A stretch of 64,000 nucleotides of DNA. It comes from Mustelus asterias (Eukaryota). Location: contig NW_027590293.1 in the NCBI RefSeq assembly GCF_964213995.1, positions 248,001-312,000 on the forward strand. Reading direction: 5' to 3'. The notes under the pieces were generated by a model. The model saw only the letters and a program-made list of their open reading frames with translations, did no database searches and was not told the DNA's origin. Numbering within the stretch: the stretch's first letter is position 1; each line of letters opens with the position of its first letter. The translations under genes and the position numbers were made by a program. Positions 18,580-64,000 of the stretch are shown here, one piece after another.

Positions 18580-18911
18580 GGAGCTGACAATGATTCTGAA
18601 GGGTTTGCGGATCCACAAAGTGTTTCCAAATCCTCCCAGCCACCGCCTAACGCTGACTCCGCTTCTCCGGGACAAACAAGCGCCAAGGACAGCAATGACA
18701 CTGCGCATGCTCCACATCACAATGCCCGGAGACTGATTGACGGCAGCTCCGGACCAATAGGAAGAGGAGCGGCTGGTCCTCCAACCAATCTGAGTGAATG
18801 AGGGGCGGGACCTGAAGCATGCGCAGTGCGGGGAATGGCGACGGACGGTTTCCTTTATCCAATTCCCGATGGGGAACTTTAGAAAATTGAACAACATCAA
18901 CATCTGTGAGT
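18580..18911 (+). promoter_or_regulatory. ZNF promoter module plus exon-1 splice donor (ACATCT|GTGAGT, ~18905)
   Basis: CCAAT and GC boxes and GCATGCGC. The donor and the following intron start match 53806-53866 on the minus strand. Confidence 0.65.
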
Positions 18912-19559
18912 AAAACACTTCCTTTTCTCCCCCTTTCCATTTCTTCTCTCATTCTGGGGGAAATTGGGGACCTGCAGCAACTGAAGATAAAGGAAGTGAA
19001 TCCAGGGAGGCTGCAGACTCTGGAAAGATTGGCCCAGGTCTCTCTCTCTCTCAAACCAGAAAATGATCCATTTCTGCCCACTGTTTGCTGTTAGCCAATC
19101 TTCTATCCACGCCAATATGTTATCCCCACAGCATGAATTTTTATTTGCTGCAATAACCTTTCATGTGGCACCTCATCAAATGTCTTCTGGAAATCTAAGT
19201 ACAGCGCATCCACCGGTTTCCCTTTATCCAATTCCCGATGGGGAATTTTAGAAAATTGAACTACACATCAACTATCTCACTCTGTTAAGACCCGAGAATG
19301 AAGCTCAGCAGGACCCGAGGACTCATCAGCCCACAGCTCCAACAGTTTGCTGAGGACTACTTCCCTGGGAATTGTGCTTTTTCAGAGTTCATCCCACACT
19401 TCTGTTTTCTGATTTCCAGCTGTTTCTGAGTTTTAACTGTGTCCTCTATTGTGAACACCGAGGCAAAATACTTGTTCAATTCATCTCCCAGCTCCTTATT
19501 TTTCATCATCAATTCCTGGACTCACTTTCTATTAGACAGTTAAGAAATGAGGTCGAGCA

Positions 19560-20258: not shown

Positions 20259-20932
20259 ATAAAAGCAAATTACTGCGGATGCTGGAATCTGAAACCAAGA
20301 GAGAAAATGCTGGAAAATCTCAGCAGGTCTGGCAGCATCTGTAAGGAGAGAAAAGAGCTGATGTTTCTTGTCTAGATGACCCTTTGTCAAAGCTCTGAAA
20401 CATCAGTTCTTTTCTCTCCATACAGATGCTGCCAGACCTGCTGAGAATGGGGAGAGAGTGTGTGGGATGGAGATTTCCAGCTTTTGGGGAATGAGAGAGG
20501 AAAGAATGTTCCATAGAAATTGTCTGTTCTGAATTTCTATCCTGTACTGACACTGATGACTTTTGGAAACTCATTTTACAGGATATTGAAAGAGGAATCA
20601 CAGGCCGAAATCTCAAACGTCACGTCTAGATCTGACAGAGTCTTATTCCTTGGGACCTCAATATCATCGGATTTTGAATCCAGAAGGAGAAATGATTGTC
20701 CAGTCTGTCGATTTGAAAAGATTTGAAATGTCAGTGTGAGTGAAAAAGCATCAACACACTGCCACACTCGAGTGAGAGTGTTCCAATGCACTGACTAAAG
20801 AGCTTTAACCAGTTACACAGTCTGAATAAATATCACACCATTCACAGCGGGGAGAGACTGTAATCTTGTTCTGTGTGTGGACGAAGTTTCAACGAATTGT
20901 CCACTCAAGAGAGACGTAAGGACACCTGCACC

Positions 20933-33700: not shown

Positions 33701-34491
33701 AAGTTTCCAAAAGTCATCAGTGTCAGTACAGGATAGAAATTCAGAACAGACAATTTCTATGGAACATTCTTTCCTCTCTCATTCCCCAGAAGCTGTAAAT
33801 CTCCATTCCACACACTCTCTCCCCATTCTCAGCAGGTCTGGCAGCATCTGTATGGAGAGAAAAGAACTGATGTTTCAGAGCTTTGACAAAGGGTCATCGA
33901 GACAAGAAACATCAGCTCTTTTCTCTCCTTACAGATGCTGCCAGACCTGCTGAGATTTTCCAGCATTTTCTCTCTTGGTTTCAGATTCCAGCATCCGCAG
34001 TAATTTGCTTTTATAAGGCTGCAGATACCTCCTCCCAAGTAACATGCGTGTGCCCAAGACATCACCACTTGTTTCCCTTATTTCTTTCGCACCCATGGTG
34101 CTCTCCGCAGTAAACACAGAGGAGAAGTATTCATTAAAAATCTCACCCATCTCCTGTGGCTCCACACACAGATGGCCATACTGATTTTTAAGGGGATCTA
34201 TTCTCTCTCTAGCCACCCTTTTACTCTTAATATAGCTATAGAACCTCTTGGAATTTTCTTTAATCTTACCTGCCAGATCCATATCAGACCCTCTTTCTGT
34301 CCTCCTGATTTCCCTCTTCAGTATTTTCTTACACTTTTTATAGTCAGAGTGATTCACTTGTCCCCGATTGCCTAAACCCAATGTATGCTTCCTTCTTTTA
34401 CCTGACCAGAGCCTCAATGTCCCTTGTCTGCCAGAGATCCCTAAATTTACCATTCTTTCCCTGCATCTTAACAGGAATATACTGCCCCTGG
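30714..34491 (-). repeat. Right arm of the inverted segmental duplication
   Basis: Reverse complement of 19782-23970, lacking the 22868-23461 insertion. Confidence 0.9.
32414..33340 (-). CDS. C2H2 zinc-finger protein, 11 repeats (9 intact)
   Basis: Starts MEKPWKC. Finger 7 has His>Arg (LWARQRVH) and finger 11 has Cys>Gly (FTGSQC). Acceptor at ~33691. Confidence 0.9.
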
Positions 34492-34669
34492 TCTCTTGCA
34501 CATTCTCCTCGTGTCTGCGTGGGTTTCCTCCGGGTGCTCCGGTTTCCTGCGAACAAATAAACCTGTTGGACTTTAACCTGGTGTTGTTAAACTTCTTACT
34601 GTGTTTACCCCAGTCCAACGCCGGCATCTCCACATCATGAAGATCATTTGTAGCCAGATGAAACAGTGA

Positions 34670-38560: not shown

Positions 38561-38692
38561 CAAAAGGAATTTACAAAAGTCATCAGTGTCAGCACAGGAT
38601 AGAAATTCAGAACAGACAATTCTAATTTCTATGGAGCATTCTTTTCTCTCTCATTCCCCAAAGTCTTCCCCTGGAGTGCAGCCTAAGACACA

Positions 38693-40430
38693 AAACATCG
38701 ATGGTGGAGAACACCCGATATTGCGCAATTTGATTAACCATGTCAGATATGCGGGGAAGGGGGTACGCGTCCAGCTGCCTGTATCGGTTAATGGTCTGAC
38801 TGTAGTCAATGACCATTCGATGTTTCTCCCCAGTTTTAACAACTACTACTTGGGCTCTCCAGGGGCTGGTACTGGCCTCAATGATCCCCTCCCCTAGGAG
38901 CCGTTGCACTTCGGACCTGATAAAAGCTCTGTCTCCAGCACTGTACCGTCTGTTCTTGGTGGCGATGGGCTTGCAATCGGGGGTGAGATTTTCAAACAGT
39001 GAGGGAGGGGCGACTTTAAGGGTCGGGAGGCTGCAGGTGGTGCGCGGTGGGCGATCTAAGAACTGGGGATTGCAAACGGAGAGCGGGGGGAAAGGCCCAT
39101 TCTACTCCATGGTGATGCTCTTAAGGTGACTCAGGAAATCTAGCCCCAGGAGTACGGCAGCGCAGAGTTGTGGCAGCACGAGGAGCCTGAAATTTTTGTG
39201 CACTGTGCCCCGTACAGTCAGGGTCGCCACGCAGTACCCGAGGCCATCCACCGAGTGGGACTTTGAAGTCATGGAGATCGTTTGCTTCACTGGCAGTACT
39301 GAAAGGGTGTAGTGACTCACTGTGTTAGGGTGAATAAAGCTCTCCGTACTCCCACAGTCAAACAAACAGTTTGTAGTGCGACCGTTTACCTCGATGTCCA
39401 TCATGGACCTGGCGAGTTGGTGAGGCCAGGATTGGTCCAGCGTAATCGAAGCCACCGTTGGATTTTGCGAGTAGCCGCACGCGGCTGACGGCGTCCAAGA
39501 TGGCGGCCTGCACAGCCCACACGCGGCTGATGGCGTCCAAAATAGCGGCCCACACGCGGCTGATGGCGTCCAAAATGGCGGCCCGCATGGCTCACACGCG
39601 GCTACTGGCGGCCCCCACGGGTCACACACGGCGCTACTGGGCTTGGAGGTCGATTTTGCTCTGCATACCATCACGTAATGGCCCTTCTTTCCACACCCGG
39701 AGCAGATCGCATCCTTCGCCGAGCTGCATTGTCGGGGGTGCTTCCCCAGGCCGCAGAAGTCGCACTTCGGGCCTCCGGAGACTGCCGCAGCGGTCGGGTC
39801 ATTGGTGGGACGTGGTGTGGTGTAGGCCTGCGGCCCTCCTGAGTACAGAGGTGGCGGCGGCCGCAGTGTCCACGATGCGCCCCCGTGGTCGGGGGTGTAG
39901 GCCTCAAGATTACAGAAGGCCACCTCTAATGAGTCGGCAAGTGCCACAATCTTTTGTAGGTCCAGCCCATCCTGTTCCAGCAGTCGTTGTAGGATATAGT
40001 TTGACCTGATACCTGTGACATAGGCATCTCTGATTAAGTCCTCAGTGTTTTGGGTGGCTGTTACGGCCTTGCAGTTGCAGGCCCTGCCAAGTGCTCGCAA
40101 CGCACGCAGGAATTGATCACCCGATTCTCCTGGCTGTTGTCTGCGAGTAGCCAGAAGATGTCTGGCGTAGATTTCATTAGACTGTTTGTTGTACTGGCCT
40201 TTTAAAAGTTCAATCGCATCCTTGTAAGTTTCAGCGTCTCTAATCATCGCGAATACTTGATCACTTACCCAGGCGTGGAGCACATGTAGCTTGTCGGTTT
40301 CGGTCCGGACGACGGAGGAGGAGGTGAGGAAAGATTTGAAACAGCGCAGCCAGTGATCGAAGCTGAGGGTCCAGTTCGAGTCTGTCAGGTTTTAGTATCT
40401 GCTCCATCCCAAAACATTTGCTCATAAAAT
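38693..40430 (-). mobile_element. Gypsy LTR retrotransposon 5' half: gag, protease and RT N-terminus
   Basis: 393-aa ORF with zinc knuckles (CSGCGKKGHYVMVC) and protease LFDCGS. RT start IIEASTSPWRAQVVVVK...LDAYPLPRI...FSTID, truncated at ~38693. Confidence 0.85.
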
Positions 40431-42015: not shown

Positions 42016-42046
42016 CTCTCTGAATGAAGATTGAGCTTCAGACAGA
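42016..42046 (+). other. Empty copy of the Tx1 target site / ZNF exon-1 remnant
   Basis: ctctctgaATGaagattgagcttcagacaga. Its last 29 nt are the exact reverse complement of 53890-53918. Confidence 0.85.
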
Positions 42047-43054
42047 TTAATATTGTACTGTAGCTACCTTAGGTATTTCCAGTCATTCATCACTTGCCTA
42101 TTAGAGTCATTAGTGTTTGGATTTCTTCTCCACAGGGATCAGTGGAGGGTGAGGGCCATTGAATATATTCCAGGGTGAGTTAAACTGATTTTTGATTGAT
42201 AAAGGTGTCAAGCGTTATGGGAAACAGGTAGGGAAATGGAGTGAAAGTTAAGATGAGGAGGGATTTCCTCACTCAAGTATGTGGTGTAGTTTTGGAATTA
42301 TGCTACCCCAGAGGACTGTGAAGCCTCAGTCATCGATAAATTTCAAGCCGGAGATTGATAGGTTTTGAGATATTGAAGACATCGAGTGATCTGGGGGATA
42401 GCGTGGGAAATGGTGCTGAGGTAGATCGGCCAATTCTCACTGAATGCTTGTGGCAATTCGATGGGCCGGATAAGCCAACTGTTGCTTCTATTTCTTATGA
42501 TTTCTATGTGCTGGAGTGGAGGCAGTGAGCATGGATCTGTCAATCAGCCTCAATCAGCACCTTCAGGAGAATTGGGAGGGTGGATATTAGATACAGCAGA
42601 GTGAGAATGGAGGGAGAGTGTGTGGGATGGAGATTCACAGCTTTTGGGGAATGAGAGAGGAAAGAATGCTCCATAGAAACTAGAATTGTTTGTTCTGAAT
42701 TTATGTTCTGACACTGATGACTTATGAAAACTCGTTTTACAGGATGCTGAAAGAGGAATCACAGGCAGAAATCTCAAAAGTCACGTCGAGACCTAACAGA
42801 GTCATATTCCTTGGGAGCTGAATATCATTGGCCTTTAAATTTAGAAGGAGAAATGGTTGTCCGGTCTGTTGATTTGAAAAGATTTCAAACATCAGTGTGA
42901 CTGGAAAAGCACCAACAGTGTTCCAGTGCACTGACTAAAGAGCTTTAACCAGTTACACAGCCTGAATAAATATCACACCATTCGCAGCTGGGAGAGACTG
43001 TACCTGTATTCTGTGTGTGGACAAGGCTGCAACTGAGGCAAGATCACCTGCACC

Positions 43055-43981
43055 ATGGAGAAACCATGGAAATGTGTGGACTGTGGGAAGGGATACGGAG
43101 CCCCATCTAAGCTGGAAATTCATCGGCGCAGCCATACTGGGGAGAAGCCATTCATCTGCTCTCAGTGTAAGAAGGGATTTAATCATTTATCCAGCTTACA
43201 GATGCACCAGCGAGTTCACACTGGGGAGAGACCATTCACCTGCTCTCAGTGTGGGGAGGGGTTCATTCAGTCATCCAGCCTGCAGGTACACCAGCGAGTT
43301 CACACTGGAGAGAGGCCGTTCACCTGCTCTCAGTGTGGGGAGGGATTCACTCGGTCAGACCATCTGCAGAGACACCAGCGAGTTCACACTGGGGAGAGGC
43401 CATTCACCTGCTCTCAGTGTGGGAAGGGATTCACTCAGTCATCCCACCTGCAGAGACACCAGCGAATTCACACTGGGGAGAGACCGTTCACCTGCTCTCA
43501 GTGTGGGGAGGGATTTACTCAGTCATCCCACCTGCGGACACACCAGCGAGTTCACACTGGGGAAAGACCGTTCACCTGCTCTCAGTGTGGGGAGGGATTC
43601 ACTCAGTCATCCAACCTGCAGTCACACCAGCGAATTCACACCGGGGAGAGACCATTCACCTGCTCCCAGTGTGGGCAGGAATTCACTCAGTCAGCCGACC
43701 TGCAGAGACACCAGCGACGTCACACAGGGGAGAGGCCGTTCACCTGCTCTCAGTGTGGGAAAGGATTCACTTTGTCAGCCTACCTGCAGAAACACCAGCG
43801 TGTTCACACTGTGGAGAAACCATTCACCTGCTCTCAGTGTGGGAAGGGATTCACTCAGTCATCTGACCTGCGGATACACCAGCGAGTTCACACTGGGGAG
43901 AAACCATTCACCTGCTCTCAGTGTGGGAAGGGATTCACAGTTTCATCCCAGCTGCTGAGACACCAACAAGTTCATGAGTGA
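43055..43981 (+). CDS. C2H2 zinc-finger protein, 11 fingers
   Basis: 308-aa ORF. Third paralog of the 20933 and 33340 genes, with the same leader and 3' flank into CR1. Acceptor at ~42743. Confidence 0.9.
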
Positions 43982-49959: not shown

Positions 49960-50468
49960 GTAGAAAGGATGTGATTGCACTGGAGGGGGTGCAGAGGAGA
50001 TTCACCAGGATGTTGCCTGGGATGGAGCAGCCGAGCTATAAAGAGAGATTAGATAGACTTGGATTGTTTTCTTGAGAGCAGAGAAGGCTGAGGGGGGACA
50101 TGATTGAGGTGTATAAGATTGTGAGGGGTTTGGACAGGGTGGATAGGAAGCAGCTGTTCCCCTTAGTTGAAGGGTCAATAACGAGGGGGCATCATTTTAA
50201 GGTGAGGGGCAGGAGGTTTTGGGGGTTTGAGGAAAAATGTTTTCACCCAGAGGGTGGTGGGAGTCTGGAATTCACTGTCTGGGAGGGCAGTGGAGGCGGG
50301 AAACCTCACAACCTTTAAAAAGCACATGGATGAGCACTTGAATGTTTTGACAGTTCAAACACCATCAGCCAAGTGCTGGAAAATGGATTAGTGTAAATTT
50401 AGTATAGTTTTGTCAGTACAGACCCGATGGGCTGAAAGGCCTCTTCTGTACTGTATGACTCTATGACT
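49960..50468 (+). mobile_element. CR1 LINE 3' fragment converging on a ZNF 3' end
   Basis: IEVYKIVRGLDRVD; its (ctatgact)n tail overlaps the ZNF stop codon. Confidence 0.8.
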
Positions 50469-50970
50469 TGTGAATTCGCTGGTGTTTCTGCAGTCGGGAT
50501 GAATGAGTGAATCCCTTCCCACACACTGTGCAGGTGAATGGCCTCTCCCCAGTGTGAACCCGCTGGTGTGTCCGCAGGCCTGATGGCACACTGAATCCTT
50601 TCCCACACACAGAGCAGGAGAACGGCCTCTCCCCAGTGTGAACTTGCTGGTGTCGCCACAGGCTTGATGGCACACTGAATCCTTTCCCACACACAGAGCA
50701 GATGAATGGTCTCTCCCCAGTGTGAACTCGCTGGTGTCTCCGCAGGGTGGATAACTGAGTGAATCCTTTCCCACACACAGAGCAAGTGAACGATTTCTCC
50801 CTGGTGTGAATTCGCTGATGCCTCTGCAAATCAATTATCTGAGTGAATCCCTTCCCACACACAGAGCAGGTGAACGGCCTCTCCCCAGTGTGACTGCGCC
50901 GATGAATCTCCAGCTGAGATGGGAAACTGAATCCTTTCCCACAGTCCCCACATTTCCACGGTTTCTCCAT
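50461..50970 (-). CDS. C2H2 zinc-finger protein, 6 fingers (host gene of the Tx1 insertion)
   Basis: MEKPWKC...; paralog of 7-828 with the same first two and last fingers. Acceptor tttgcag|GATAAC at 51320. Confidence 0.88.
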   Translation of the reverse strand: MEKPWKCGDCGKGFSFPSQLEIHRRSHTGERPFTCSVCGKGFTQIIDLQRHQRIHTREKSFTCSVCGKGFTQLSTLRRHQRVHTGERPFICSVCGKGFSVPSSLWRHQQVHTGERPFSCSVCGKGFSVPSGLRTHQRVHTGERPFTCTVCGKGFTHSSRLQKHQRIHKS

Positions 50971-51811
50971 GGTGCGGGTGTCCTTGTCACTCTCCAGGTT
51001 AAACAATCAGTTAAATCTCACACAGAACACGGATACAGTCTCTCCCCGCTGTGAATGCTGCGATGTATTTTCAGGCGGTGGAACTGGTGAAAGCTCTTTC
51101 CACACTCAGTGCATTGGAACACTCTCACTCGGGTGTATCTGTGTCTTGGTGCTTTTTCAGTCACATTTATGTCAAAAAAATTCTGAAGCAGACAGAACAG
51201 AAAAAGATTTCTCCTTCTAGATTCAATGATATTCAGATCCCGATCAATCAAATGACTGTCAGATTTAGATGTGACATTTGGTTTGAGATTTCTGCCTGTA
51301 AATCCTCACCTTCTGTTATCCTGCAAAAGCAGATTACAAAAGTCATCACTGTCAGTACAGGATAGAAATTCAGAACGACATTTCCTTGTTTTAAGTTCAT
51401 TCATTAGTCACAAGTAAGGCTTACATTAACACTGCAATGAAGTCACTGTGAAATTCCGCTAGTTGCAGCAGTCGGGCGCCTGTTGGGAACAATGCATCGA
51501 ACCAGCACGTCTTTCAGAATTCTAGTTTCTATGGAAACTTCTTTCCTCTCTCATTCCCCAAAAGCTGTGACTCTCCATCCCACACACTCTCCCTCCATTC
51601 TCACTCTGCTGTATCTAATATTCATCCTCCCAATTCTCCTGAAGGTGCTGATTGAGGCTGGTTGACAGATCCATGCTCACTGCTTCCTGTCCTGGACACA
51701 GAGAGCTGGAAATCTCCATGCAGGCTGCCAGACAGATATATGTCTATCTGACTGGACTAACAATGTGTGGAATGTACAGACTGGACTCACTCGCTTTCCC
51801 TTCAGTGGCTA

Positions 51812-53650
51812 AGGGCAGACATGGCACCAGGACCCAATGAACTGCACGCGAGGCTTTCTATGGATGTTGCTGAAGAGATAGTGGACACTTTGGTTGTAAT
51901 TTTTCATAACTCGCTAAATTCCAGGAGGGTATCAGAAGATTGGAAAACAGCCAGTGTGACTCCCTGGTTCAAAAAGGGAGGAAGGCAGAAGGCAGGGAAC
52001 TATAGGCCAGTTTGTTTAACATCGATTATTGGCAAGACGCTGGAGTCAAAGAGGAAATAGCTAATCATTCAGGAAAGCTGAATATAATCAAACCTCGTCA
52101 ACATGGTTTTATGAAAGATAAATCATGATTGACAAATTTGCTCGAATTCTTTGAGGATGCAAGAGGAAGAATAGATTGAGCACAATCTGTAGATGTAGTG
52201 TATTTAGATAGAGCAGCACATCGCCAGGGACCCGGGTTCAATTCCGGCCTTGTGTAACAGTCTGTGTGGAGTCTGCACGTTCTCCCCATGTCTGCATGGA
52301 TTTCCTCCGGGTGCTCCAGTTTCTTCCCATAGTCCAAAGATGTGCGGGTTAGGTTGATTGGCCATGCTAAGTTGTCCCCTTGTGTCCCAATAGATATAGA
52401 TTAGGGGGATTAGTGTGGTTAAAAATGTGGGGTTATGGAGATAGGACCTGGGAAAGATGCTCTTTTTGAGAGTCAGTGCAGACTCTCTGAGCCAAATGGC
52501 ATCCTGCACTCTAGGGATCCTATGATTTCCAAAAGGCATTTGACAAGGTACTGCATAAGAGGCTGGTACATAAAGTAAAAGTTCATGGAATTGTAGGAAG
52601 TGTGTTAGCATGGATTAAAAACTGTCCGTCACATAGAAAACAGAAAATTGGAATAATGTGTCATTTTCAGAGTGGAAAGATGTAACTAGTGGAGTACCAC
52701 AGGGATCAGTTCTTCGCCTGCAATTGTTCATTATTCAATTAATGACCTGAAGGAAGGAACAGAATGTAAGGTTTCCAAATGATTCGAAGATAGGTAGACA
52801 GACATGTTGTGATGAGGATCTTTTGATTCTGCAACAGGATATAGATAGATTGAGTGACTGGGTGAAAACCTGGCAAATGGTGTTTAACGTGGGGAAGTGT
52901 AGGGTCGTGTATTTCAGTCGGAGGAATCAAAAGGGAGATTATCTACATGGAGAGAGGCTGCAGTTGAATGAAGTACAGAGGGATCTAGATGTTCTTGCAC
53001 ATGAATCACAAAAGGCTAGCAGACAGGTCCCACAATAAGTAAGAAGGGATTGGAGTTTAAAAACAGGAAAGTTTTGTTGCAATTGTACAGGGTGTTGGTG
53101 AAGCCTCACCTGGAATACTGTGTACATTTTTGATCCCCTTACCTAAACAAGGATATAGTAACATTGGAGATAGTCCAAAGGAGATTCACCAGGCTAATTC
53201 CTGCGATTAGAGGGTGGTCCTATCAAGAGAGAATAAATTGTCTCGGTCTGTATTCATTGAAGTTTTGAAGACAAAGGGGTGACTTTATTGAAGCATATAA
53301 GATCCTGAGGGGGCTTGACAGGGTAGATAGTGAGACATTTTCACGAGTGGAAGAGTTACAAACAAGCTACAAGATAAAGGATCGGTCATTTAAACCTGAG
53401 TTGCGCAGAAATTGTTTCTCGCAAAGGATGGTGAATCTCTGGAATTCTCTGCCTCAAAGGGTGGTGGAGGCTGGATCATTAGAAGTATTTAAAGTGAGGT
53501 GGATAAATATTTGATAGATCGACGATTGGAGGGCTATAGGGAAATGGCACAGAAAAGAAGCTGAGGCTAGAATAGATCAGCTATGATTGGATTGAATGGC
53601 GGGGCAGGCTTGATGGGCCTGGTGGCCACTCCTGCTTCTATTTCTTGTCA
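51812..53650 (+). mobile_element. Degraded CR1 in the ZNF intron, with a nested HE1-like SINE (~52213-52525)
   Basis: EDWKTASVTPWFKKG..NYRPVCLTS and QQDIDRLSDWVKTWQM. It splits the conserved ZNF intron between 51810 and ~53805. Confidence 0.8.
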
Positions 53651-53859
53651 TCAGTTCCTGCAAGACAACAATTTCCCCAGAAAGTGTTACATTTGGACAT
53701 AAATGAGTAGACTAATGTGTGAATACACTGGTTAGAGAGACATGAAGAATGCGAGGAGGATTTTTATTTCGGCAGCGAGTGGTGACCTGGAAGTTAAAAA
53801 TTCAACTCCAGAATAAGAGAAGAAATGGAAAGGGGGAGAAAAGAAAGTGTTTTACTCAC

Positions 53860-53918
53860 AGATGTTGGAGAGACAGAAGGAAGTTTGAGTCTGTCTGAAG
53901 CTCAATCTTCATTCAGAG
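53860..53918 (-). other. Putative ZNF exon 1 (MKIELQTDSNFLLSLQH, phase-2 donor) containing the target-site duplication
   Basis: ATG at 53912-53910, then 17 codons plus 2 nt, then GTGAGT. The intron start matches 18906-18955 and 23971-24000. Confidence 0.6.
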
Positions 53919-54046
53919 ACCTCTTTTTAGGTCAAACCAAGTAAACAAACTCAAATTAAATCAGGACAAAGTAAAAGGGGCAGCTCCCCAAAAAGGAGGG
54001 GGAACAGCCCGAACAGAAATCAAAATGCAAAGGAAACTTAAAAACA

Positions 54047-57000
54047 TCAAATTAAAATGTGATTATTAGGGTCAATAATGCACCCCAACCCCTGCGGTGC
54101 CCAGCGGGCGCGGAAAGCGTCAACCTCGCCCGTGGACACCGCATGCTCCCTCTCCAGGGACACCTGGCCGCGAACGTAGCCGCGGTAGAGGGGAAGACAG
54201 TCAGGATGGACGGCCCCCTCGATCGCCCGCTGCCTGGACCGGTAAATGGCGCGTTTCGCCAGGCCCAGGAGCAGGTTCACGAGGAGGTCGCCATCCCGAC
54301 CCTCCCCTCTCCGCACCGGGTGTCCGTAGATCAGGAGCGTGGGACTGAAGTGCAAACAAAACATCAATAAAAGATTCTTCAGGAAAACATAAAGGGAGTG
54401 CAGCCTAAGACACTCAACATAGACATGGTCCACGGACTCCACAAGGCCACAGAAAGGGCAGTCTTCGGAGCCCGTGAACCAGTGAATCCTACGGTTGTGC
54501 GGAACTGCTGCATGCATCACCCTCCACCCCAGGTCCCCGACGTAATTGGGGGAGATCCCTCCGTAGAGGGACCTCCAGCGGGGACCTCCGCCGCCCGGCG
54601 GCAACAAGGCCCGCCAAGGTGTATCCGGGCGACAGGCGAGGAGGCGGTAGTGGAAGGTGTGCAGCAGCAGCCCGCACAGGAAACGCCTCCGCGCGGTAGA
54701 AAAAGGCACGGAGGGCATTTCCGCGAGGCGGCTCAGGCTGTGGGGCACCTCACCCAGGGGAGGGGGCTGAGGCTTTGGGCCAATGTGGAATTCCGCCCGA
54801 ACAGGGGAACGCTCGGGCGGGATCCCACCGCACGCCTGTGCCGTCTCAAGTTTGCGTGCAGTTTCGGGGCCGAGCACGACCGTCCTAAGGTCTAGGATGG
54901 CTTTGGCCGCGCGCCGGACGGACGTCCCCGCGCGCTCAGCCAGCACGCGGGGACTCATCCAGCCCGCTCCTCCGCCATCGAGCACGTCCCCGATTCTGGT
55001 CACCCCGGCGTCCACAGCCCCCCTCTCCGCCAGCCACCTGAAGTTATACGGCTGGAGGAGCGGATTCCTGAGCAGCGGCTCTCGCACGAGAGCCGCTACT
55101 CCTGACGGGGGAGAGCTGCGTCGCGAGGCGACCTTGTTCCAGACAGTGAGGAGGTCCTGGTAAAAGACGGGCAACTCCTGCAGGGTGGTCGAAGCACGCC
55201 CCAGTTCGATATGCAGGAGCTGCACGTCATAATTGAGGCCGTGCCACTGGCGGAAGAAATACGTCGCCATGGCACACCACTGTGGAGGGGGCTCAACGTA
55301 AAGGTACCTCTGCAGGGCCTGGAGGCGGAAGGTCGCTATCTGAGTGCGGAGGCACACCAGACCTTGTCCGCCCTCCTCAAGCGGGAGATACAGGACCGCA
55401 GCAGGGACCCAGTGCAGTCGATTGCCCCAGAAGAACCGCACGAGGGTTCTCTGGATATCGGTGACAAAGCCAGGGGGAGGGGTCAAAGGGACCAGCCGGT
55501 ACCACAGCATGGAGGCGACCAGCTGGTTTATGACGCGAGCTCGCGCCCCGTAGGACAGCACTCGGAGCAGTCCTGTCCAGCGACCCAGGCGGGCGGAGAC
55601 TTTGGCCTCCAGCTCCCGCCAGTTCGCCGGCCAGGATTCCTCGGCTGGGCAGAGATGGGCCCCCAAGTAGAGGAGGTCGGTCCTGCTCCAGGTGAAAGGC
55701 CTGAGCTCCTCCGGAAGGGGGTCCGTCTCCCAAGGACCGACAAGGAGTCCGGAGCACTTGGCCCAGTTGATCCTGGCGGAGGACGCGGCGGAGTACACCG
55801 CCTGGCATTCTCGCATCCTCCGCAGGTCAGCCGGGTCCGTGAACATGAGGAGCACGTCGTCGGCGTAAGCTGACAGGACCACCCCTACGTCCGGTCCGCG
55901 CAGGACCAAACCTGACAACCTCCTCCGCAAGAGGCGCAGGAATGGCTCCACGCATACGGAATACAGTTGGCCGGACAAGGGGCAGCCCTGCCGTACTCCT
56001 CTCCCGAAGCGAAGGGGCGCCGTCAGGGACCCGTTAACCTTAATCACACACTCTGCGGCAGAGTACAGTAATCGGATCCGGGCGACAAAATGCGTCCCGA
56101 ACCCGAATGCCCGCAGAGTCCCGAGTAAATACTCGTGCTCCACCCTGTCGAACGCCTTCTCCTGATCTAATGACAAGAAGGCGCCCGACAGACCAGCCCT
56201 CTGGGTGTGATGGATTAGGTCCCAGACCAGGTGGAGATTGTCATGTATGCAACGGCCCGGGACCGTGTAGGACTGGTCAGGGTGGATCAAGTGGTCCAGC
56301 ACGGATCCAAGGCGTGAAGCCATAGCCCTGGCAAAGATTTTATAATCCGTGCTGAGGAGGGAGACCGGGCGCCAGTTCTTGAGCAGGTGGAGATCCCCCT
56401 TCTTGGGCAGCAGGGCAATGACGGCCCTGCGCCACGAAAGGGGCATCTCCCCGGTAGCGACGCTCTCCCCCAGGACCCCCGCGTAGTCGCTCCCCAGGAC
56501 GTCCCAGAACGCCCTGAAGAACTCTACTGTCAGCCCGTCCAGCCCAGGGGCCTTGCCCCGGCTGAGGCCATTTAGGGCGCCGGTCAGCTCGGCCATGGTG
56601 GTAGGGGCCTCGAGCCTGCCGACGCCCTCCGGGCCGACCTGCGGCAGGTCCTCCCACAGAAGTCTGCGGGCATCCTCGCTGGACGGATCCGGAGAGAAGA
56701 GCGAGGTGTAATACTCCCGGGCAATGGCCCGGATGCCCTCCGGATCCGAGACGGGGGAACCGTCGTCGGCCAGCAGCGTAAGGAGCTGCTGACGGTTAGC
56801 CCGCCCTCTTTCCAGCGAGTAGAAGAAGGGGGAGCCGCGGTCCAGGTCCACCTGGAACTGGAGCCGCGACCTCACGTACGCGCCGCGAGACCTGGCAAGC
56901 TGCAGGTCCCGCAGCGCGTCCTTCTTCTCCCTGTACTCCGAACGCAGGGCCGGGTCCGCGTCAGGCCGACTGAGACGTGCCTCCAGGTCGAGCACCTCCT

Positions 57001-57940
57001 TCTCCAACTCCTCGAGCCTGGATTTCCGCCTCTTTGTCGACCCCCTCGCGTACCCCTGACAGAAGGTACGGACGTGAGTCTTGCCCACATCCCACCAGAG
57101 CCTCAAGGAGGGGAAGCCTCCCCGCTTCCTTCTCCAGCCGGCCCAGAATCGACGGAACGAGTCCAGGAAGCGCTCGTCCTCCAGCAGCGTGTTGTTAAAG
57201 TGCCAGTACGCGGACCCCCGCCGGATGCGAGACGGCGCAAAGTCCGCCCACACCAGGCTGTGGTCCGTGCTCGACACCGGCCGCATGGAGACCGAGGACA
57301 CGCCGGACACGTGCGCCTTCGAAATGTAAAGGCGGTCGAGCCTGGACGCTCCGACTCCAGGCCTCACGAAAGTGAAGGCGCTGGAGCCAGGATGGAGATG
57401 TCTCCAGACGTCCACCAAGTCGTGAGACCCGATCAGGTCCCGCAACTTCACCACCGCCGGAGTGCGCAGCCAGGGGCCGGTGCGGTCCCGTGCCTCGAGG
57501 ATGCAGTTGAAATCTCCCCCGAGGATAATGCATTCGCCCCCCGCGATGGTGTCGATGTGAGCGGACACTTTCTCGTAGAAAGTCGTTTGCTGCGGTCCAG
57601 CGGTCGGGGCGTAGACATTCAGCAAGTGAATGACCACGCCCCCCTCACGGACCGTCAAGTGCAGCAACCGGCCTGGCACCGGCTCCTTGACCCCCAAGAT
57701 CTCCGGCTTATAACGCGGGGCCAACAAGATAGCCACCCCGCAAGAAGCGAGCGTGAGGTGGCTCATGTAGACCCCCCCTCGCCACTCCAGGAGCCATTGG
57801 GCTTCGTCTCCCGGAACGGTGTGGGTTTCCTGCAGGAAACACACCGCATACTTCCCGTCACGGAGGACCGAGAAGTTCTGGAACCTGCGGTGTGGCCCAC
57901 TGCTGCCGTTGATGTTGAGGCTGGCTATGGTCACCTTCAT
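54047..57940 (-). CDS. Tx1 ORF2: APE endonuclease, reverse transcriptase and C-terminal Cys/His finger
   Basis: SLNING, LQETH, GGDFN, SRLDR, TDH (APE); NWRPVSLL, LDQEKAFD, GVRQGCPLS, YADD (RT); CPFC-x7-H-x4-C. 1297 aa uninterrupted. Confidence 0.95.
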   Translation of the reverse strand: MKVTIASLNINGSSGPHRRFQNFSVLRDGKYAVCFLQETHTVPGDEAQWLLEWRGGVYMSHLTLASCGVAILLAPRYKPEILGVKEPVPGRLLHLTVREGGVVIHLLNVYAPTAGPQQTTFYEKVSAHIDTIAGGECIILGGDFNCILEARDRTGPWLRTPAVVKLRDLIGSHDLVDVWRHLHPGSSAFTFVRPGVGASRLDRLYISKAHVSGVSSVSMRPVSSTDHSLVWADFAPSRIRRGSAYWHFNNTLLEDERFLDSFRRFWAGWRRKRGGFPSLRLWWDVGKTHVRTFCQGYARGSTKRRKSRLEELEKEVLDLEARLSRPDADPALRSEYREKKDALRDLQLARSRGAYVRSRLQFQVDLDRGSPFFYSLERGRANRQQLLTLLADDGSPVSDPEGIRAIAREYYTSLFSPDPSSEDARRLLWEDLPQVGPEGVGRLEAPTTMAELTGALNGLSRGKAPGLDGLTVEFFRAFWDVLGSDYAGVLGESVATGEMPLSWRRAVIALLPKKGDLHLLKNWRPVSLLSTDYKIFARAMASRLGSVLDHLIHPDQSYTVPGRCIHDNLHLVWDLIHHTQRAGLSGAFLSLDQEKAFDRVEHEYLLGTLRAFGFGTHFVARIRLLYSAAECVIKVNGSLTAPLRFGRGVRQGCPLSGQLYSVCVEPFLRLLRRRLSGLVLRGPDVGVVLSAYADDVLLMFTDPADLRRMRECQAVYSAASSARINWAKCSGLLVGPWETDPLPEELRPFTWSRTDLLYLGAHLCPAEESWPANWRELEAKVSARLGRWTGLLRVLSYGARARVINQLVASMLWYRLVPLTPPPGFVTDIQRTLVRFFWGNRLHWVPAAVLYLPLEEGGQGLVCLRTQIATFRLQALQRYLYVEPPPQWCAMATYFFRQWHGLNYDVQLLHIELGRASTTLQELPVFYQDLLTVWNKVASRRSSPPSGVAALVREPLLRNPLLQPYNFRWLAERGAVDAGVTRIGDVLDGGGAGWMSPRVLAERAGTSVRRAAKAILDLRTVVLGPETARKLETAQACGGIPPERSPVRAEFHIGPKPQPPPLGEVPHSLSRLAEMPSVPFSTARRRFLCGLLLHTFHYRLLACRPDTPWRALLPPGGGGPRWRSLYGGISPNYVGDLGWRVMHAAVPHNRRIHWFTGSEDCPFCGLVESVDHVYVECLRLHSLYVFLKNLLLMFCLHFSPTLLIYGHPVRRGEGRDGDLLVNLLLGLAKRAIYRSRQRAIEGAVHPDCLPLYRGYVRGQVSLEREHAVSTGEVDAFRARWAPQGLGCIIDPNNHILI

Positions 57941-57968
57941 GTCAGCAGCTTTGTGCCACCGTCACCAC

Positions 57969-60068
57969 TTAACTAGGTGTGTGGGGGGGCGCTGGCGCAA
58001 TTCTCACCAGTCCACCCCCCACCTTTTCGAGCCTGTGGAGGAACCGCAGTACCCAGCGCCGCTCTATTTTCTCCAGGCCCGCGGAGGCATGCGAGCATGC
58101 CTTCACGGACCGGACGAGCTGCGCCAGGTCCGGCCAGCGGCCGAGGGCTAGCCGGATTATGTCGGAGCGACCGGAATGGTTACGGATAAAGACCCTGAGG
58201 TCCTTGGAGGGGATGAGGGACGACTCGGTGGGGGGCACGAGGGAGTCCCCCGCCTCGCTCTGGGCAGACTCTGAAAGTGTCCCCGTGCCCTCCACCGAGC
58301 CGCTGACCTCCTCAGGGCGGTCGCCCCTCGACTCCGAGTCCCCCGCCGCAGGACGTACGGCGGGCGGCACGGAGCCACCAACTAGCCCTAGCCCCTCCCC
58401 GATCCCACCCCCAGGATCGGTGGAGGAGGGGTTCCCCCCGGGCTCACCTTTCCCGGATTGCGGGCCCCCGTGCGACGGCGGCCCAGCCCCCCCCCCCGCC
58501 CCAGACGCTTGGACACCCCCCAGGTCCGGTGTATCCTTCGGACTGAGGTTGGGGATGTCCAGCGTCCAAGGTCGGGACGGAGAGGACGAGTGGATCGTCT
58601 CTTCGCCGCCGCCGCACGAGGACATGAACATTGGAGTGTCGCCCCAGTCCCCCGACAGACTGAAGAAGAACTCCGGGTTGTAACCGGCCGGGTGGAACGG
58701 AACCGTGGGGGCCCCGCTGCCAACCGGCCCCGGAGACTCCTCGCCGGGGGACTGAGGCAACACATGCTTGGATTTACAGGGTGCCTTGCCCCCTTTTTTC
58801 TGGGGACAAGGCACAAAGACAGGTGGGGGCACGGCAGGAGATGACTCACAAGGGGGGAGGGGCACGCAGACCTCGAACTCTACGGTGCCCGAGGGGCCCC
58901 GCCTCTTTTTGTTAACCTGCCCTCGGGCAGGCGAGGCCCCTCGCCCTCCGCCCCTCTTCGCCTTGCCGCGCCCCCCCTGCTCTCCCGTCACTTCCCCCCG
59001 AGGTGGCGGCGTCGCCAGTTTTGCCGGCTCGGGGTCGCTTACCCCCCCATGCTCGGGCCCATGATCCCGGGCGCCGGACCCAGCACTAGGCCCCGGAGAG
59101 CCCACGGGCCCGGCAGATGGTGGTGGTGGTGGTGGGGGGGGGGCGCAGGTGGAGACTGAGGCGGTCCCCGAGCCGGCTGCCGGGGTGGTCGGGGTGTTTT
59201 CCCTGGGGGCCGGGGTTCCGGTACCCCCCTTCTTTTTTGTAGGTCCCTTATGGGCCTTTTGGCCGCGCGGGGGCTCCGCTCCCCCCCCGCCGGCAGCTGA
59301 GGTGGCAGCTGCTGCCGGCGTGGCCTCCCCTCGCGGGGGAGCAGATGGTACTCGCTTGGGGGGAGAGGGGGCTGCGGTGCCAGCTGCGGCCGCCTTGGGT
59401 TGGTGGTCGGCGGCCTTGGAGACGGGGCAGTTTTTCCGCACGTGCCCCGCCTCCTTACAGGCATGGCACCGCACACCGTCCGCGGACCAAAAGACCCGGT
59501 ACGTGGTCCCCTCGTGGGGGACATTGAACCCTCCCTCCAGTTCCTCCTCCCGGGCCAGGCGGACAAAAACCTGGCGCCGGAAGGAGTATATGTGGCGGAG
59601 GGAGGGGTCCCGAAGGCCGAGCGGGATCGGCTGCACCCCGGACCTGACCTCCCCCAGTAGATGGAGGTGGGGGAGGAGGAGCTCACTCGGTAGGAAGGGC
59701 GGGACGTTCGATATTACTATCTTGTGGGCGGTGGCCTCCAATGGGTCCACCGCCAGGAACGTCCCGCCCACCGTGAGCCCCCTCTCCAGGGCGAGGCGAA
59801 CCGCCCGCTCGGCCTTCAGGAAGAATACGGCCCGGCCGGACATCTTTGAGGCCGCGACAATGGCTGAGGGGCCGACAACCCCAGCCATTGCCTTGACGCA
59901 GGCCTCGATAGACATGTCGGGGTGGGCGTAGCACTTCACCCCGAGCTGCCGCGTGATTAAAGAGAATGGCGGCAGGGCCTTGGGAGCGGCGGGGGCTCTG
60001 GCAGCCGCCACGCCCGCATAGGTGGGCCGAGAAGGCCCTGCCACCGGCGACGCTGGTGATGTCGCCAT
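57969..60068 (-). CDS. Tx1 ORF1: RNA-binding domain with a CCHC knuckle and a long Pro/Gly-rich tail
   Basis: From the in-frame ATG (MATSPAS...): IVAASKM..RAVFFL, KIVISNVPPF, SFRRQVFV and CHACKEAGHVRKNC, typical of Tx1 ORF1. 699 aa. Confidence 0.88.
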   Translation of the reverse strand: MATSPASPVAGPSRPTYAGVAAARAPAAPKALPPFSLITRQLGVKCYAHPDMSIEACVKAMAGVVGPSAIVAASKMSGRAVFFLKAERAVRLALERGLTVGGTFLAVDPLEATAHKIVISNVPPFLPSELLLPHLHLLGEVRSGVQPIPLGLRDPSLRHIYSFRRQVFVRLAREEELEGGFNVPHEGTTYRVFWSADGVRCHACKEAGHVRKNCPVSKAADHQPKAAAAGTAAPSPPKRVPSAPPRGEATPAAAATSAAGGGGAEPPRGQKAHKGPTKKKGGTGTPAPRENTPTTPAAGSGTASVSTCAPPPPPPPPSAGPVGSPGPSAGSGARDHGPEHGGVSDPEPAKLATPPPRGEVTGEQGGRGKAKRGGGRGASPARGQVNKKRRGPSGTVEFEVCVPLPPCESSPAVPPPVFVPCPQKKGGKAPCKSKHVLPQSPGEESPGPVGSGAPTVPFHPAGYNPEFFFSLSGDWGDTPMFMSSCGGGEETIHSSSPSRPWTLDIPNLSPKDTPDLGGVQASGAGGGAGPPSHGGPQSGKGEPGGNPSSTDPGGGIGEGLGLVGGSVPPAVRPAAGDSESRGDRPEEVSGSVEGTGTLSESAQSEAGDSLVPPTESSLIPSKDLRVFIRNHSGRSDIIRLALGRWPDLAQLVRSVKACSHASAGLEKIERRWVLRFLHRLEKVGGGLVRIAPAPPHTPS

Positions 60069-60459
60069 GGTATCAGGGGAAGTGCTACACCCACCCCGAG
60101 ACTGCCCAGATGCACGGCAGGGCGTATATGTGGAGGGAAAGATAAGGGAGGGTGGGGTAGGTGGGTAGGGGTGTAGGTGTTCTCTCCCCGGAGCGAGAGA
60201 GGGAGAGAGGAGGTCGGAGCAGTAGGAGGGAGAACGAGGCACAAGGCCGGTGCCCCAGTCAGGAGGGAAAGGGGAGGGGGTGCACCAATCGTGGGGACAG
60301 CAGCAGTGGGTAGGGGAATTAGGAAAAAGGTCTTCACCCCCCCCCACTGCAGATGGAAAAGAGACAGTCCAAACGCCTTCGCCCCCCCCTCTCCTCCAGT
60401 CACTCCCTGTCCTCTCTTCCTCCCTCCCCCCGGGGAGAGCGCAACCTCCAGAGGCCGGA

Positions 60460-61265
60460 TGGCAGGCATGCAGGCAGTCAGGCAGTCCAGACGGCAGGCA
60501 GGCCGGACGGCAAGCAGGCAGGCAGGTAGTCCAGACGGCAGGCAGCCCAGACGGCAGGCAGGTAGTCCAGACAGCAGGCAGGCAGGTAAGCAGGCCAGAC
60601 GGCAGGCAGGCAGGTAAGCAGGCCAGACGGCAGGCAGGCAGGTAAGCAGGCCAGACGGCAGGCAGGTAAGCAGGCCAGACGGCAGGCAGGCAGGTAAGCA
60701 GGCCAGACGGCAGGCAGGCAGGTAAGCAGGCCAGACGGCAGGCAGGCAGGTAAGCAGGCCAGACGGCAGGCAGGCAGGTAAGCAGGCCAGACGGCAGGCA
60801 GGCAGGTAAGCAGGCCAGACGGCAGGCAGGTAAGCAGGCCAGACGGCAGGCAGGCAGGTAAGCAGGCCAGACGGCAGGCGGGCAGGTAAGCAGGCCAGAC
60901 GGCAGGCGGGCAGGTAAGCAGGCCAGACGGCAGGCAGGCAGGTAAGCAGGCCAGACGGCAGGCAGGCAGGTAAGCAGGCCAGACGGCAGGCAGGCAGGTA
61001 AGCAGGCCAGACGGCAGGCAGGCAGGTAAGCAGGCCAGACGGCAGGCAGGCAGGTAAGCAGGCCAGACGGCAGGCAGGCAGGTAAGCAGGCCAGACGGCA
61101 GGCAGGCAGGTAAGCAGGCCAGACGGCAGGCAGGCAGGTAAGCAGGCCAGACGGCAGGCAGGCAGGTAAGCAGACCAGACGGCAGGCAGGCAGGTAAGCA
61201 GGCCAGACGGCAGGCAGGCAGGTAAGCAGGCCAGACGGCAGGCAGGCAGGCAACAGGCAGGCCGG
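60460..61265. repeat. 28-bp tandem repeat array in the Tx1 5' UTR (~25 units)
   Basis: Unit ggcaggcaggcaggtaagcaggccagac, with occasional 24-bp variants and degenerate ends. Confidence 0.95.
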
Positions 61266-61570
61266 GCAAGGCAGGCAGCAGCTCACCTCCCTCCTTCCTC
61301 CCCGCAGGGAGCGAAAAACAAACAAACCCAACAAAACAAAAACAAAAACCGGGCGTCTCCGTGAGCAAAAACGAGAGAAAAAAAATAAAATAAAGGTACT
61401 CACAAAAAAAGAAAAGAAAACAAACCCACAGTTTCCGCCCGGCTCCGACCCGGGGCCCCCCGCTACTCGGGCGAACGTGAACTCACCCCACCCCGGAAAC
61501 AAAGTGCAGGCGCTGCCCCAGAGGAGGGACGTTTCAGGCCGCCTGAAGCTCAATCTTCATTCAGAGAGAG

Positions 61571-64000
61571 ACCTCTTTTTAGGTCAAACCAAGTAAACAA
61601 ACTCAAATTAAATCAGGACAAAGTAAAAGGGGCAGCTCCCCAAAAAGGAGGGGGAACAGCCCGAACAGAAATCAAAATGCAAAGGAAACTTAAAAAAAAC
61701 ATCAAATTAAAATGTGGTTATTAGGGTCAATAATGCACCCCAACCCCTGCGGTGCCCAGCGGGCGCGGAAAGCGTCAGCCTCGCCCGTGGACACCGCATG
61801 CTCCCTCTCCAGGGACACCTGGCCGCGAACGTAGCCGCGGTAGAGGGGAAGACAGTCAGGATGGACGGCCCCCTCGATCGCCCGCTGCCTGGACCGGTAA
61901 ATGGCGCGTTTTGCCAGGCCCAGGAGCAGGTTCACGAGGAGGTCGCCATCCCGACCCTCCCCTCTCCGCACCGGGTGTCCGTAGATCAGGAGCGTGGGAC
62001 TGAAGTGCAAACAAAACATCAATAAAAGGTTCTTCAGGAAAACATAAAGGGAGTGCAGCCTAAGACACTCAACATAGACATGGTCCACGGACTCCACAAG
62101 GCCACAGAAAGGGCAGTCTTCGGAGCCCGTGAACCAGTGAATCCTACGGTTGTGCGGAACTGCTGCATGCATCACCCTCCACCCCAGGTCCCCGACGTAA
62201 TTGGGGGAGATCCCTCCGTAGAGGGACCTCCAGCGGGGACCTCCGCCGCCCGGCGGCAACAAGGCCCGCCAAGGTGTATCCGGGCGACAGGCGAGGAGGC
62301 GGTAGTGGAAGGTGTGCAGCAGCAGCCCGCACAGGAAACGCCTCCGCGCGGTAGAAAAAGGCACGGAGGGCATTTCCGCGAGGCGGCTCAGGCTGTGGGG
62401 CACCTCACCCAGGGGAGGGGGCTGAGGCTTTGGGCCAATGTGGAATTCCGCCCGAACAGGGGAACGCTCGGGCGGGATCCCACCGCACGCCTGCGCCGTC
62501 TCAAGTTTGCGTGCAGTTTCGGGGCCGAGCACGACCGTCCTAAGGTCTAGGATGGCTTTGGCCGCGCGCCGGACGGACGTCCCCGCGCGCTCAGCCAGCA
62601 CGCGGGGACTCATCCAGCCCGCTCCTCCGCCATCGAGCACGTCCCCGATTCTGGTCACCCCGGCGTCCACAGCCCCCCTCTCCGCCAGCCACCTGAAGTT
62701 ATACGGCTGGAGGAGCGGATTCCTGAGCAGCGGCTCTCGCACGAGAGCCGCTACTCCTGACGGGGGAGAGCTGCGTCGCGAGGCGACCTTGTTCCAGACA
62801 GTGAGGAGGTCCTGGTAAAAGACGGGCAACTCCTGCAGGGTGGTCGAAGCACGCCCCAGTTCGATATGCAGGAGCTGCACGTCATAATTGAGGCCGTGCC
62901 ACTGGCGGAAGAAATACGTCGCCATGGCACACCACTGTGGAGGGGGCTCAACGTAAAGGTACCTCTGCAGGGCCTGGAGGCGGAAGGTCGCTATCTGAGT
63001 GCGGAGGCACACCAGACCTTGTCCGCCCTCCTCAAGCGGGAGATACAGGACCGCAGCAGGGACCCAGTGCAGTCGATTGTCTCAGAAGAACCGCACGAGG
63101 GTTCTCTGGATATCGGTGACAAAGCCAGGGGGAGGGGTCAAAGGGACCAGCCGGTACCACAGCATGGAGGCGACCAGCTGGTTTATGACGCGAGCTCGCG
63201 CCCCGTAGGACAGCACTCGGAGCAGTCCTGTCCAGCGACTCAGGCGGGCGGAGACTTTGGCCTCCAGCTCCCGCCAGTTGGCCGGCCAGGATTCCTCGGC
63301 TGGGCAGAGATGGGCCCCCAAGTAGAGGAGGTCGGTCCTGCTCCAGGTGAAAGGCCTGAGCTCCTCCGGGAGGGGGTCCGTCTCCCAAGGACCGACAAGG
63401 AGTCCGGAGCACTTGGCCCAGTTGATCCTGGCGGAGGACGCGGCGGAGTACACCGCCTGGCATTCTCGCATCCTCCGCAGGTCAGCCGGGTCCGTGAACA
63501 TGAGGAGCACGTCGTCGGCGTAAGCTGACAGGACCACCCCTACGTCCGGTCCGCGCAGGACCAAACCTGACAACCTCCTCCGCAAGAGGCGCAGGAATGG
63601 CTCCACGCATACGGAATACAGTTGGCCGGACAAGGGGCAGCCCTGCCGTACTCCTCTCCCGAAGCGAAGGGGCGCCGTCAGGGACCCGTTAACCTTAATC
63701 AGACACTCTGCGGCAGAGTACAGTAATCGGATCCGGGCGACAAAATGCGTCCCGAACCCGAATGCCCGCAGAGTCCCGAGTAAATACTCGTGCTCCACCC
63801 TGTCAAACGCCTTCTCCTGATCTAATGACAAGAAGGCGCCCGACAGACCAGCCCTCTGGGTGTGATGGATTAGGTCCCGGACCAGGTGGAGATTGTCATG
63901 TATGCAACGGCCCGGGACCGTGTAGGACTGGTCAGGGTGGATCAAGTGGTCCAGCACGGATCCAAGGCGTGAAGCCATAGCCCTGGCAAAGATTTTATAA
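61571..64000 (-). mobile_element. Tx1 copy 2 (3' part; runs beyond the window), ORF2 broken by a nonsense codon
   Basis: Near-identical to 53919-56345. TGG>TGA at 63082-63084 splits ORF2 into the 63082-63978 and 61702-63012 ORFs. Confidence 0.93.

Follow-up and report, generated by a model that had tools for sequence, protein, structure and literature searches.

In the literature covered (PMC4494074, PMC4640811, PMC8869645, PMC3747384 and PMC8455134), the retrotransposons lacking long terminal repeats (non-LTR elements) with known sequence-specific integration are described as targeting rRNA, small nuclear RNA (snRNA) and tRNA genes, spliced-leader exons, microsatellites, telomeric repeats and transposons; Tx1 of Xenopus laevis, for one, inserts into the DNA transposon Tx1D (PMC4494074). 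The present analysis concerns a stretch of 64,000 nucleotides (nt) from Mustelus asterias (contig NW_027590293.1, positions 248,001 to 312,000; hereafter, the window), which contains C2H2 zinc finger (ZNF) genes and, on the minus strand at 53920..61542, a full-length element of the Tx1 lineage. The combined evidence from the window and from searches of the 3.68 Gb genome indicates that this is probably a recently active long interspersed nuclear element (LINE) that uses the non-coding exon 1 of a large C2H2-ZNF family as its multicopy niche.

Like Tx1L of Xenopus, the element encodes an APE-type endonuclease, prefers a particular target and belongs to the same reverse transcriptase (RT) clade (100/100), but unlike Tx1L and Tx1-Mar, which target DNA transposons, it inserts into a spliced exon of protein-coding genes transcribed by RNA polymerase II (Pol II). 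With Kibi and Koshi, the Tx1 families that target the microsatellites (TC)n and (TTC)n, respectively, it has in common that insertion occurs at TC, whether on or off target, although here the TC run is short and lies inside a fixed exon sequence rather than in a microsatellite, the comparison being one of targets only. Mutsu targets 5S rRNA and Dewa targets tRNA arrays, and together with Keno (U2 snRNA) these families display the same kind of Tx1-clade specificity for a multicopy gene family; their targets, however, are non-coding RNA genes, whereas in the present case the target is a ZNF exon and tRNA sequence is found inside the element. An Rfam scan of the window yielded no family at the gathering score. 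The Tx1-Mar/SINEU system of crocodilians (PMC4494074) likewise combines a Tx1 element with a short hitch-hiker that has the same target, tandem insertions around the target-site duplication (TSD) and 5' extensions, which are attributed there to transcription from flanking DNA; the target in that case is a Mariner transposon and the heads are derived from U1 and U2, in contrast to ZNF exon 1 and the tRNA-derived heads described below. Finally, R2, which inserts into 28S rDNA, offers a parallel in its co-transcription with the target, which we infer for the element studied here, and in the upstream 28S leader of its RNA that has been proposed (PMC3774820) to give uniform 5' junctions. The resemblance is confined to co-transcription: whereas the present element has an APE domain and Pol II host genes, R2 relies on a restriction-like endonuclease and a Pol I host. 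R2 also carries an HDV-like ribozyme. No ZNF-targeting Tx1 was found in the literature covered, which did not extend to Repbase, most subscription journals or the junction alignments that supplement PMC4494074; exon 1 of a protein-coding multigene family is apparently an undescribed kind of target for non-LTR elements.

The membership of the window element in the Tx1 lineage, proposed in a preliminary description of the locus, is borne out by its domains and by the RT phylogeny. The open reading frame (ORF) 2 (54047..57940, minus strand; 1297 amino acids, aa) is open and encodes an APE endonuclease (residues 6-227), an RT (512-760) and a C-terminal CCHC-like motif, with PF03372 (APE) and PF00078 (RT) both scoring above the Pfam cut-off. 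Its product is 48% identical to the ORF2 protein of X. laevis Tx1L (YTX2_XENLA) over 1297 aa, and 62% identical in the RT region, and its nearest named homolog is a stingray protein (75%); among the 120 hits listed, none carries a Keno, Kibi, Koshi, Dewa or Mutsu label. In an RT tree of 23 rows, midpoint-rooted without an L1 outgroup and with no labelled Keno or Kibi sequences among the rows, it falls within a 12-row clade supported at 100/100 that includes Xenopus Tx1 and turtle, sturgeon-labelled and stingray proteins, with teleost and alligator relatives apart. ORF1 (57969..60068, minus strand; 699 aa), recognized from the ORF list and Pfam, is open as well, and its zf-CCHC knuckle is weak (E-value 0.005, 17.3 bits, under the Pfam cut-off of 20.8). 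The element ends in ...AAAAAGAGG; no poly(A) tail was found at this 3' end, and AATAAA and ATTAAA are absent from the sense strand of 53920..61542. A metagenome scan for the element 3' end gave nine matches with unrelated flanks, which are taken as chance. One Caretta caretta gene model (P0028) combines KRAB and C2H2 domains with a Tx1-like RT, perhaps because of an intronic insertion by chance, or perhaps as a sign that turtles have comparable targeting.

The element was initially described as intact and flanked by a direct repeat. The open ORFs and an exact 25-nt repeat at 61567-61543 and 53919-53895 (the 24-mer noted originally plus one T) agree with this description, but the 5' flank is not host DNA: it consists of the 3' 2.4 kb of a second, defective copy (61572..64000, minus strand; 2458 nt at 99.2% identity), so that the locus is a tandem dimer of which the window element is the downstream copy. 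The upstream copy has a stop in ORF2 near 63084 and frameshifts in ORF1 beyond the window, and continues to G000:C261:316812 (locus L043), where the promoter-side junction of the dimer with a ZNF promoter lies, outside the window. The 3' copy of the repeat (53895..53919, minus strand) is the host exon-1 target, hereafter site 1, which consists of a TC run and TGAATGAAGATTGAGCTTCAG. The 5' copy, with extra TC units (61543..61571, minus strand), is located at the junction of the two tandem copies and is in part a target duplication and in part an element-borne leader.

Downstream of site 1, on the same strand, come the rest of the non-coding ZNF exon 1 (53860..53894), including a second insertion site (site 2, CCAACATCT), the donor GT at 53859, intron 1 (51321..53859) and, from the acceptor at 51320, exon 2 (50461..51320), with a finger ORF of six C2H2 stretches (50970-50461, from Met 50970). 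Thus, the intron indeed leads from the element to a ZNF finger exon, and the element is in the sense orientation to the gene, both being on the minus strand. Among the recurrences reported originally, the unoccupied motif copy before the ZNF at 43055 is an empty site 1 of a paralog (42016..42045, plus strand), followed by a cassette exon (42136-42228) and a finger ORF (43037-43981), and the donor and intron start do recur at 23971-24001 (87% over 31 nt). Before the ZNF at 18901, the paralogous donor and intron start are present (18898..18957, plus strand; 96.7% over 60 nt), but the site-1 motif, and with it the 24-mer, is absent.

Genome-wide, the target 27-mer has 861 matches with at most two mismatches. 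The empty sites, inspected for promoters at 26 loci, carry GCGGAAGT, two CCAAT boxes and, about 35 nt upstream, an initiator (Inr)-like TCATTCC, which together resemble a CCAAT/ETS/Inr promoter. At 17 of 20 sites hand-chosen across contigs, a sense finger array lies 0.8-7.9 kb downstream, the other three sites being filled by sister elements; antisense arrays, 8-9 kb away, occur at two of the 20. Splicing of the exon is recorded in retrocopies: in L137, exon 1 is joined at the donor directly to the start of exon 2, and in L121, it is joined to exon 2 via the cassette exon that is also seen in the window at 42136-42228. A third sequence, L138, starts at the Inr and continues past the donor into unrelated-looking, exon-like sequence. 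Both L137 and L121 came from the 27-mer loci, and a genome pattern search for spliced exon 1-exon 2 junctions gave a single, chance-like match. Spliced models could be built for 16 of 21 sites (three were dropped because no finger array was in range, one lacked acceptor homology and one had an unmatched donor), and the ATG of the motif, which opens only 8-73 codons, reaches the first finger in none of the 16. This ATG therefore belongs to an upstream ORF, exon 1 is non-coding and the element does not, contrary to the initial proposal, sit 6 nt before a ZNF start codon; the target is a spliced 5' untranslated region (UTR) exon of ZNF genes. In a head-to-head arrangement, ZNF genes share a CpG-rich promoter of about 460 bp, with exon 1 of one class (class I) paired with that of another (class II), as in L159, L043, L089 and C88:2887593/2888053; class I exons often occupy the partner position, about 460 bp away. 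In L043, a tRNA-like fragment is present past the class I partner exon.

Given that Tx1L and Tx1-Mar target DNA transposons (PMC4494074) and that part of the motif is element-borne, the supposed exon might instead belong to another mobile element or to the Tx1 terminus itself. This alternative is extremely unlikely: the empty sites carry promoter motifs and a donor and lie upstream of sense finger arrays, and there are retrocopies in which the motif is spliced to ZNF exon 2. The possibility that the 24-mer is part of the element's own termini had been named at the outset as a ground for refutation; part of it does travel with the element 5' end, which refines rather than refutes the target claim because hundreds of empty host sites exist among the 861 matches.

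The 22-nt 3' end of the element occurs exactly 246 times in the genome, and in 112 of these cases (46%) ATTGAG follows within 10-34 nt, compared with none for reversed-pattern controls and about 1.5 expected by chance (25/4096 x 246). Once the inner array junctions are removed, the site-1 share is estimated at about one third. By the criterion of PMC4494074, a family is target-specific when >20% of its flanks are of one type; the window subfamily, at 46%, lies above this threshold, and the sister subfamily described below, with 141 of 920 3' ends (15%) followed by its motif, lies below it. Of the best-matching long copies, 30 were fetched, and 25 are on target, with 14 running into the host exon and 11 into another copy. 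The class I exons (up to 436 of the 861 sites) contain the 27-mer but not the TC run; none is found among the 100 site-1 junctions listed, and all 21 inspected promoter-side junctions are in class II exons, of which, by a rough estimate, about 60 of about 430 are occupied. The TC runs at the junctions comprise one to four units followed by one fixed exon sequence, unlike the (TC)n microsatellite that is the criterion for Kibi.

The site-1 insertions are repeated and independent because the occupied sites are scattered over the tree of host sites. Among 15 occupied sites, the last 300 nt of the elements are 99.7% identical (median), compared with 70.5% for the host flanks; only one of the 105 flank pairs reaches 98%, and seven of the 15 sites have an empty paralog at >=98%. 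A tree built from 46 class II flanks, 15 of them occupied and 31 empty, requires 12 changes in occupancy, against a shuffle mean of 12.9, and rejects a single occupied clade. ZNF clusters do duplicate, and some arrays carry identical junction variants on several contigs (L053-L057 and L059), as would be the case if one or a few old insertions had been amplified by tandem duplication of ZNF genes. As the main cause, however, duplication is already contradicted by the tree and the flank identities, with elements far more alike than their flanks, and is highly improbable.

The 5' junctions show a further regularity. An exon-like leader begins each of the 100 listed 5'-complete copies (of 113), and the 56 distinct 5' junctions inspected comprise 21 preceded by a class II promoter, 34 preceded by another copy and one that is rearranged. 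The leader often carries variants that are almost absent from host sites: GAGAATT is present in 46 of the 100 listed 5' junctions and precedes the host continuation only once genome-wide; GTGTAG, which goes with a single 5' UTR type across the 30 loci compared, has 15 of its 16 matches at element junctions; and CTCGG, at or upstream of the insertion point, has 13 of 15. The 25-nt repeat is therefore not a pure TSD, and the original view of the 24-bp repeat as a plain, host-derived duplication does not hold as it stands. The lengths of other TSDs also speak against that view: among the first 30 matches in genome order, which are 5'-truncated and nearly all off target, a TSD is detectable in 15 and is 12-16 nt long in 11 of these 15. 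The simplest reading is that an RNA starting in host exon sequence donates the leader at the 5' junction. On indirect evidence, the element appears to be transcribed from the ZNF promoter, in line with the suggestion that it gains such a promoter by inserting in exon 1. Locus L151 is a retrocopy with a poly(A) tail and a 10-nt TSD; it spans a tandem junction and ends exactly at the GAG|GTGAGC donor of the element, and thereby shows, in this one case, read-through and use of that site. Transcription of the whole element by Pol III from the tRNA head was considered and rejected, the sense strand containing 25 runs of at least four T.

A related, older subfamily, the long copies of which are 91-95% identical to the window copy, uses site 2. 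Its 3'-end type abuts CCAACATCT (9 nt before the donor) in 109 cases, class I genes among them, and the site-2 duplication includes the donor, so that the insert is left inside intron 1 with the host donor kept upstream. Three full-length sisters with broken ORFs (L185, G000:C12:54737524; L188, C23:4001178-4011177, a tandem array of sister elements; L189, C23:4716796) have tRNA-Val sequence at the start, called by ARAGORN in L185, L189 and the second tandem unit of L188. This head, possibly a start site or a processing signal, is part of the insert, being located downstream of the 5' target copy, and is followed by another captured exon end, donor and intron start; junctions between host exon and tRNA-Val head have five matches genome-wide. 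Also at site 2, a short, SINE-like (short interspersed nuclear element) element with a tRNA-Arg head and a Tx1 tail is found with the donor duplicated (L020, L196, L181 and L192; for example, G000:C87:1330414-1330458). Of the 59 matches to its body, 51 join CCAACATC, with at least two different flanks, and many of the copies may stem from gene duplication.

The 5' end of the window element can be read against these sisters. It begins with a diverged copy of host exon 1, from site 1 to the donor stretch, in which the donor is lost (61501..61542, minus strand), and continues with a decayed tRNA-Val-derived head (61431..61500) that matches the ARAGORN-called head of L185 at 54 of 73 nt; this head was recognized only by alignment to the sister, as ARAGORN, run on the window, made no call and Rfam in E-value mode made no tRNA call. 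The first 118 nt of the element match the host exon plus tRNA-Val head of L185 in 81 of 122 columns, a score reached in none of 1000 shuffles. Further into the 5' UTR, there are three donor-like sites (GGG|GTGAGT at 61486, TTT|GTGAGT at 61403 and GAG|GTGAGC at 61286; 61281..61489) and a CCTG-rich tandem array that is common to the sister elements (60470..61280, limits approximate). The combination of a decayed host exon with the sister's tRNA-Val head suggests that the target shifted when a co-transcribed leader was captured, and the young family is inferred to have arisen by taking up the part of the exon that lies between site 1 and site 2. Aligned pieces of the endonuclease domains show about 86-96% identity, and the endonucleases of the two subfamilies, at about 86-90% identity, differ recurrently near residues 15, 64, 76-78, 113 and 189.

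What these insertions would mean for the host genes is a separate question. ZNF clusters have been linked to repression of transposable elements (TEs) in other vertebrates (PMC10547256, the main text of which has no match for shark or Tx1), and an insert of 7-15 kb in exon 1 could lower ZNF output, so that the element might be thought to target these genes as a counter-defence, disabling TE repressors, as had been suggested at the outset. We consider this quite unlikely. The exon is non-coding, the host donor stays upstream of the insert when site 2 is duplicated, only about 60 of the roughly 430 class II sites are estimated to be occupied, and among the Pfam hits listed for four ZNF ORFs of the window there is no effector domain, repressor domains included, but only finger families. 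Moreover, the element has donor-like sites, with two of its three best-scoring ones within the first 260 nt by a simple weight matrix (for which we assumed donor frequencies), and no sense poly(A) signal. A low-cost niche for the element is more likely than disabling of anti-TE genes, because the exon is non-coding and the element donors, or the duplicated host donor at site 2, could splice the element out.

These observations can be combined into an explanation in five steps. The first, established by the genomic counts, is that insertions arise repeatedly and independently, in sense, at a TC run of class II exon 1 that lies about 35 nt downstream of an Inr-like site, with re-use of the regenerated site building tandem arrays. 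Second, transcription from the host Pol II promoter, or by read-through within arrays, would give an element RNA that starts with host exon sequence; on completion of the 5' junction, this leader would pair with the target, as has been put forward for R2, and this would explain both the uniform full-length junctions and the element-borne variants in the 5' repeat. Third, the choice of site might reflect a preference of the APE endonuclease for TC plus downstream sequence, pairing of the read-through RNA flanks, or both. Fourth, the family would derive from the older site-2 sister, with the exon stretch between the sites captured as a new 5' end. The fifth and weakest step is a low cost to the host, with element donors or the duplicated site-2 donor splicing the element out of the ZNF mRNA.

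Several observations weigh against this explanation. All counts come from one genome; 134 of the 246 element 3' ends are not at site 1, and 20 of 29 off-target ends (one retrocopy among the first 30 matches was set aside) start with TC only; the preference of the sister subfamily for site 2 is much looser than that of the window subfamily for site 1. For the window copy, the exon-to-leader match is weak when taken by itself, 40 of 2000 shuffles scoring as high, and L151 is a single case in which the RNA ends at the donor rather than being joined to ZNF exon 2. The promoter of the window's own array (L043; C261:316830-317300) lacks about 55 nt, including one CCAAT box and the ETS motif. In L210/L216, the leader starts at the Inr without a promoter, in an interrupted copy for which no TSD was found, and the next downstream 3' end of the family is at a site-2 motif; this locus may be a rearrangement rather than an off-target copy with a full leader.

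The claim that ZNF exon 1 is the target is supported as a preference, with 112 of the 246 3' ends abutting the motif: site 1 is a strongly preferred but non-exclusive address, and part of the preference is for a short motif because most off-target ends begin with TC only. The off-target ends are compatible with generic, Kibi-like nicking at TC combined with open germline promoters and no extended sequence recognition, as are the lack of site-1 insertions in class I exons, which have no TC run, and the location of the targets in CpG-rich promoters. Nevertheless, generic nicking is unlikely to suffice, given that 112 ends fall in about 430 class II sites, as against at most 134 in the roughly 3x10^7 TCTC words expected in the genome (a composition estimate), that the junction TC runs have only one to four units followed by a single fixed sequence and that the sister subfamily uses a different, non-TC site in the same exon.

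The off-target counts are inflated by satellite-like arrays of element 3'-end fragments (G000:C89:2431524-2433135, C71:14940661-14944276 and C4:68681753-68691936), with units of about 132 bp, about 255/1030 bp alternating and about 680 bp. Two long copies, L003 (C462:141482) and L022 (C133:339408), have the same CpG-rich, non-ZNF 3' flank, which could be a second target or result from duplication; in L204, L209, L213 and L214, where the 5' ends behind these copies were sought, there is no element junction. A full-length copy at L009/L159 (C71:17085381-17092454) has a ZNF promoter at its 5' junction and unrelated DNA at its 3' end, suggestive of deletion or rearrangement. ACAA comes after a subgroup of 3' ends, in 6 of 30 off-target cases as well as at site 2 (L092, L095, L096, L100, L103, L109, G000:C87:262378 and others), which suggests a third subfamily or an RNA 3' flank that was carried along. 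In L021 (C160:765744), the exon end after the target is replaced by a sequence that we take to be 5S-rRNA-like.

Among the other features of the window are decayed gag, protease and RT fragments resembling an LTR retrotransposon between ZNF genes (38622-40391, minus strand, recognized from translations), a 1.9-kb inverted duplication (93%) of a ZNF exon with a flanking LINE fragment (19775-21685 and 32588-34498) and about ten copies of a 38-bp tandem repeat (15847-16374).

If the element indeed uses ZNF exon 1 as its niche, the strategy of residing in a multicopy safe niche would extend to mRNA genes transcribed by Pol II, an active LINE would sit inside a gene family suspected of TE control, and the two close subfamilies, with different sites in one exon, would make a shift in target specificity directly testable. 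A broader and more tentative possibility, to which we give somewhat less than even credence, is that a long-lived Tx1 lineage parasitizes the Pol II promoters of ZNF genes: it would have no promoter of its own, find its site partly by host-derived RNA flanks, be removed by the spliceosome, have moved its target by about 45 nt within the exon through capture and support a tRNA-headed SINE at the same address. Should this be so, one capture after another could be read from the 5' UTR, and comparing the two endonucleases would be a natural way to map a change in APE specificity.

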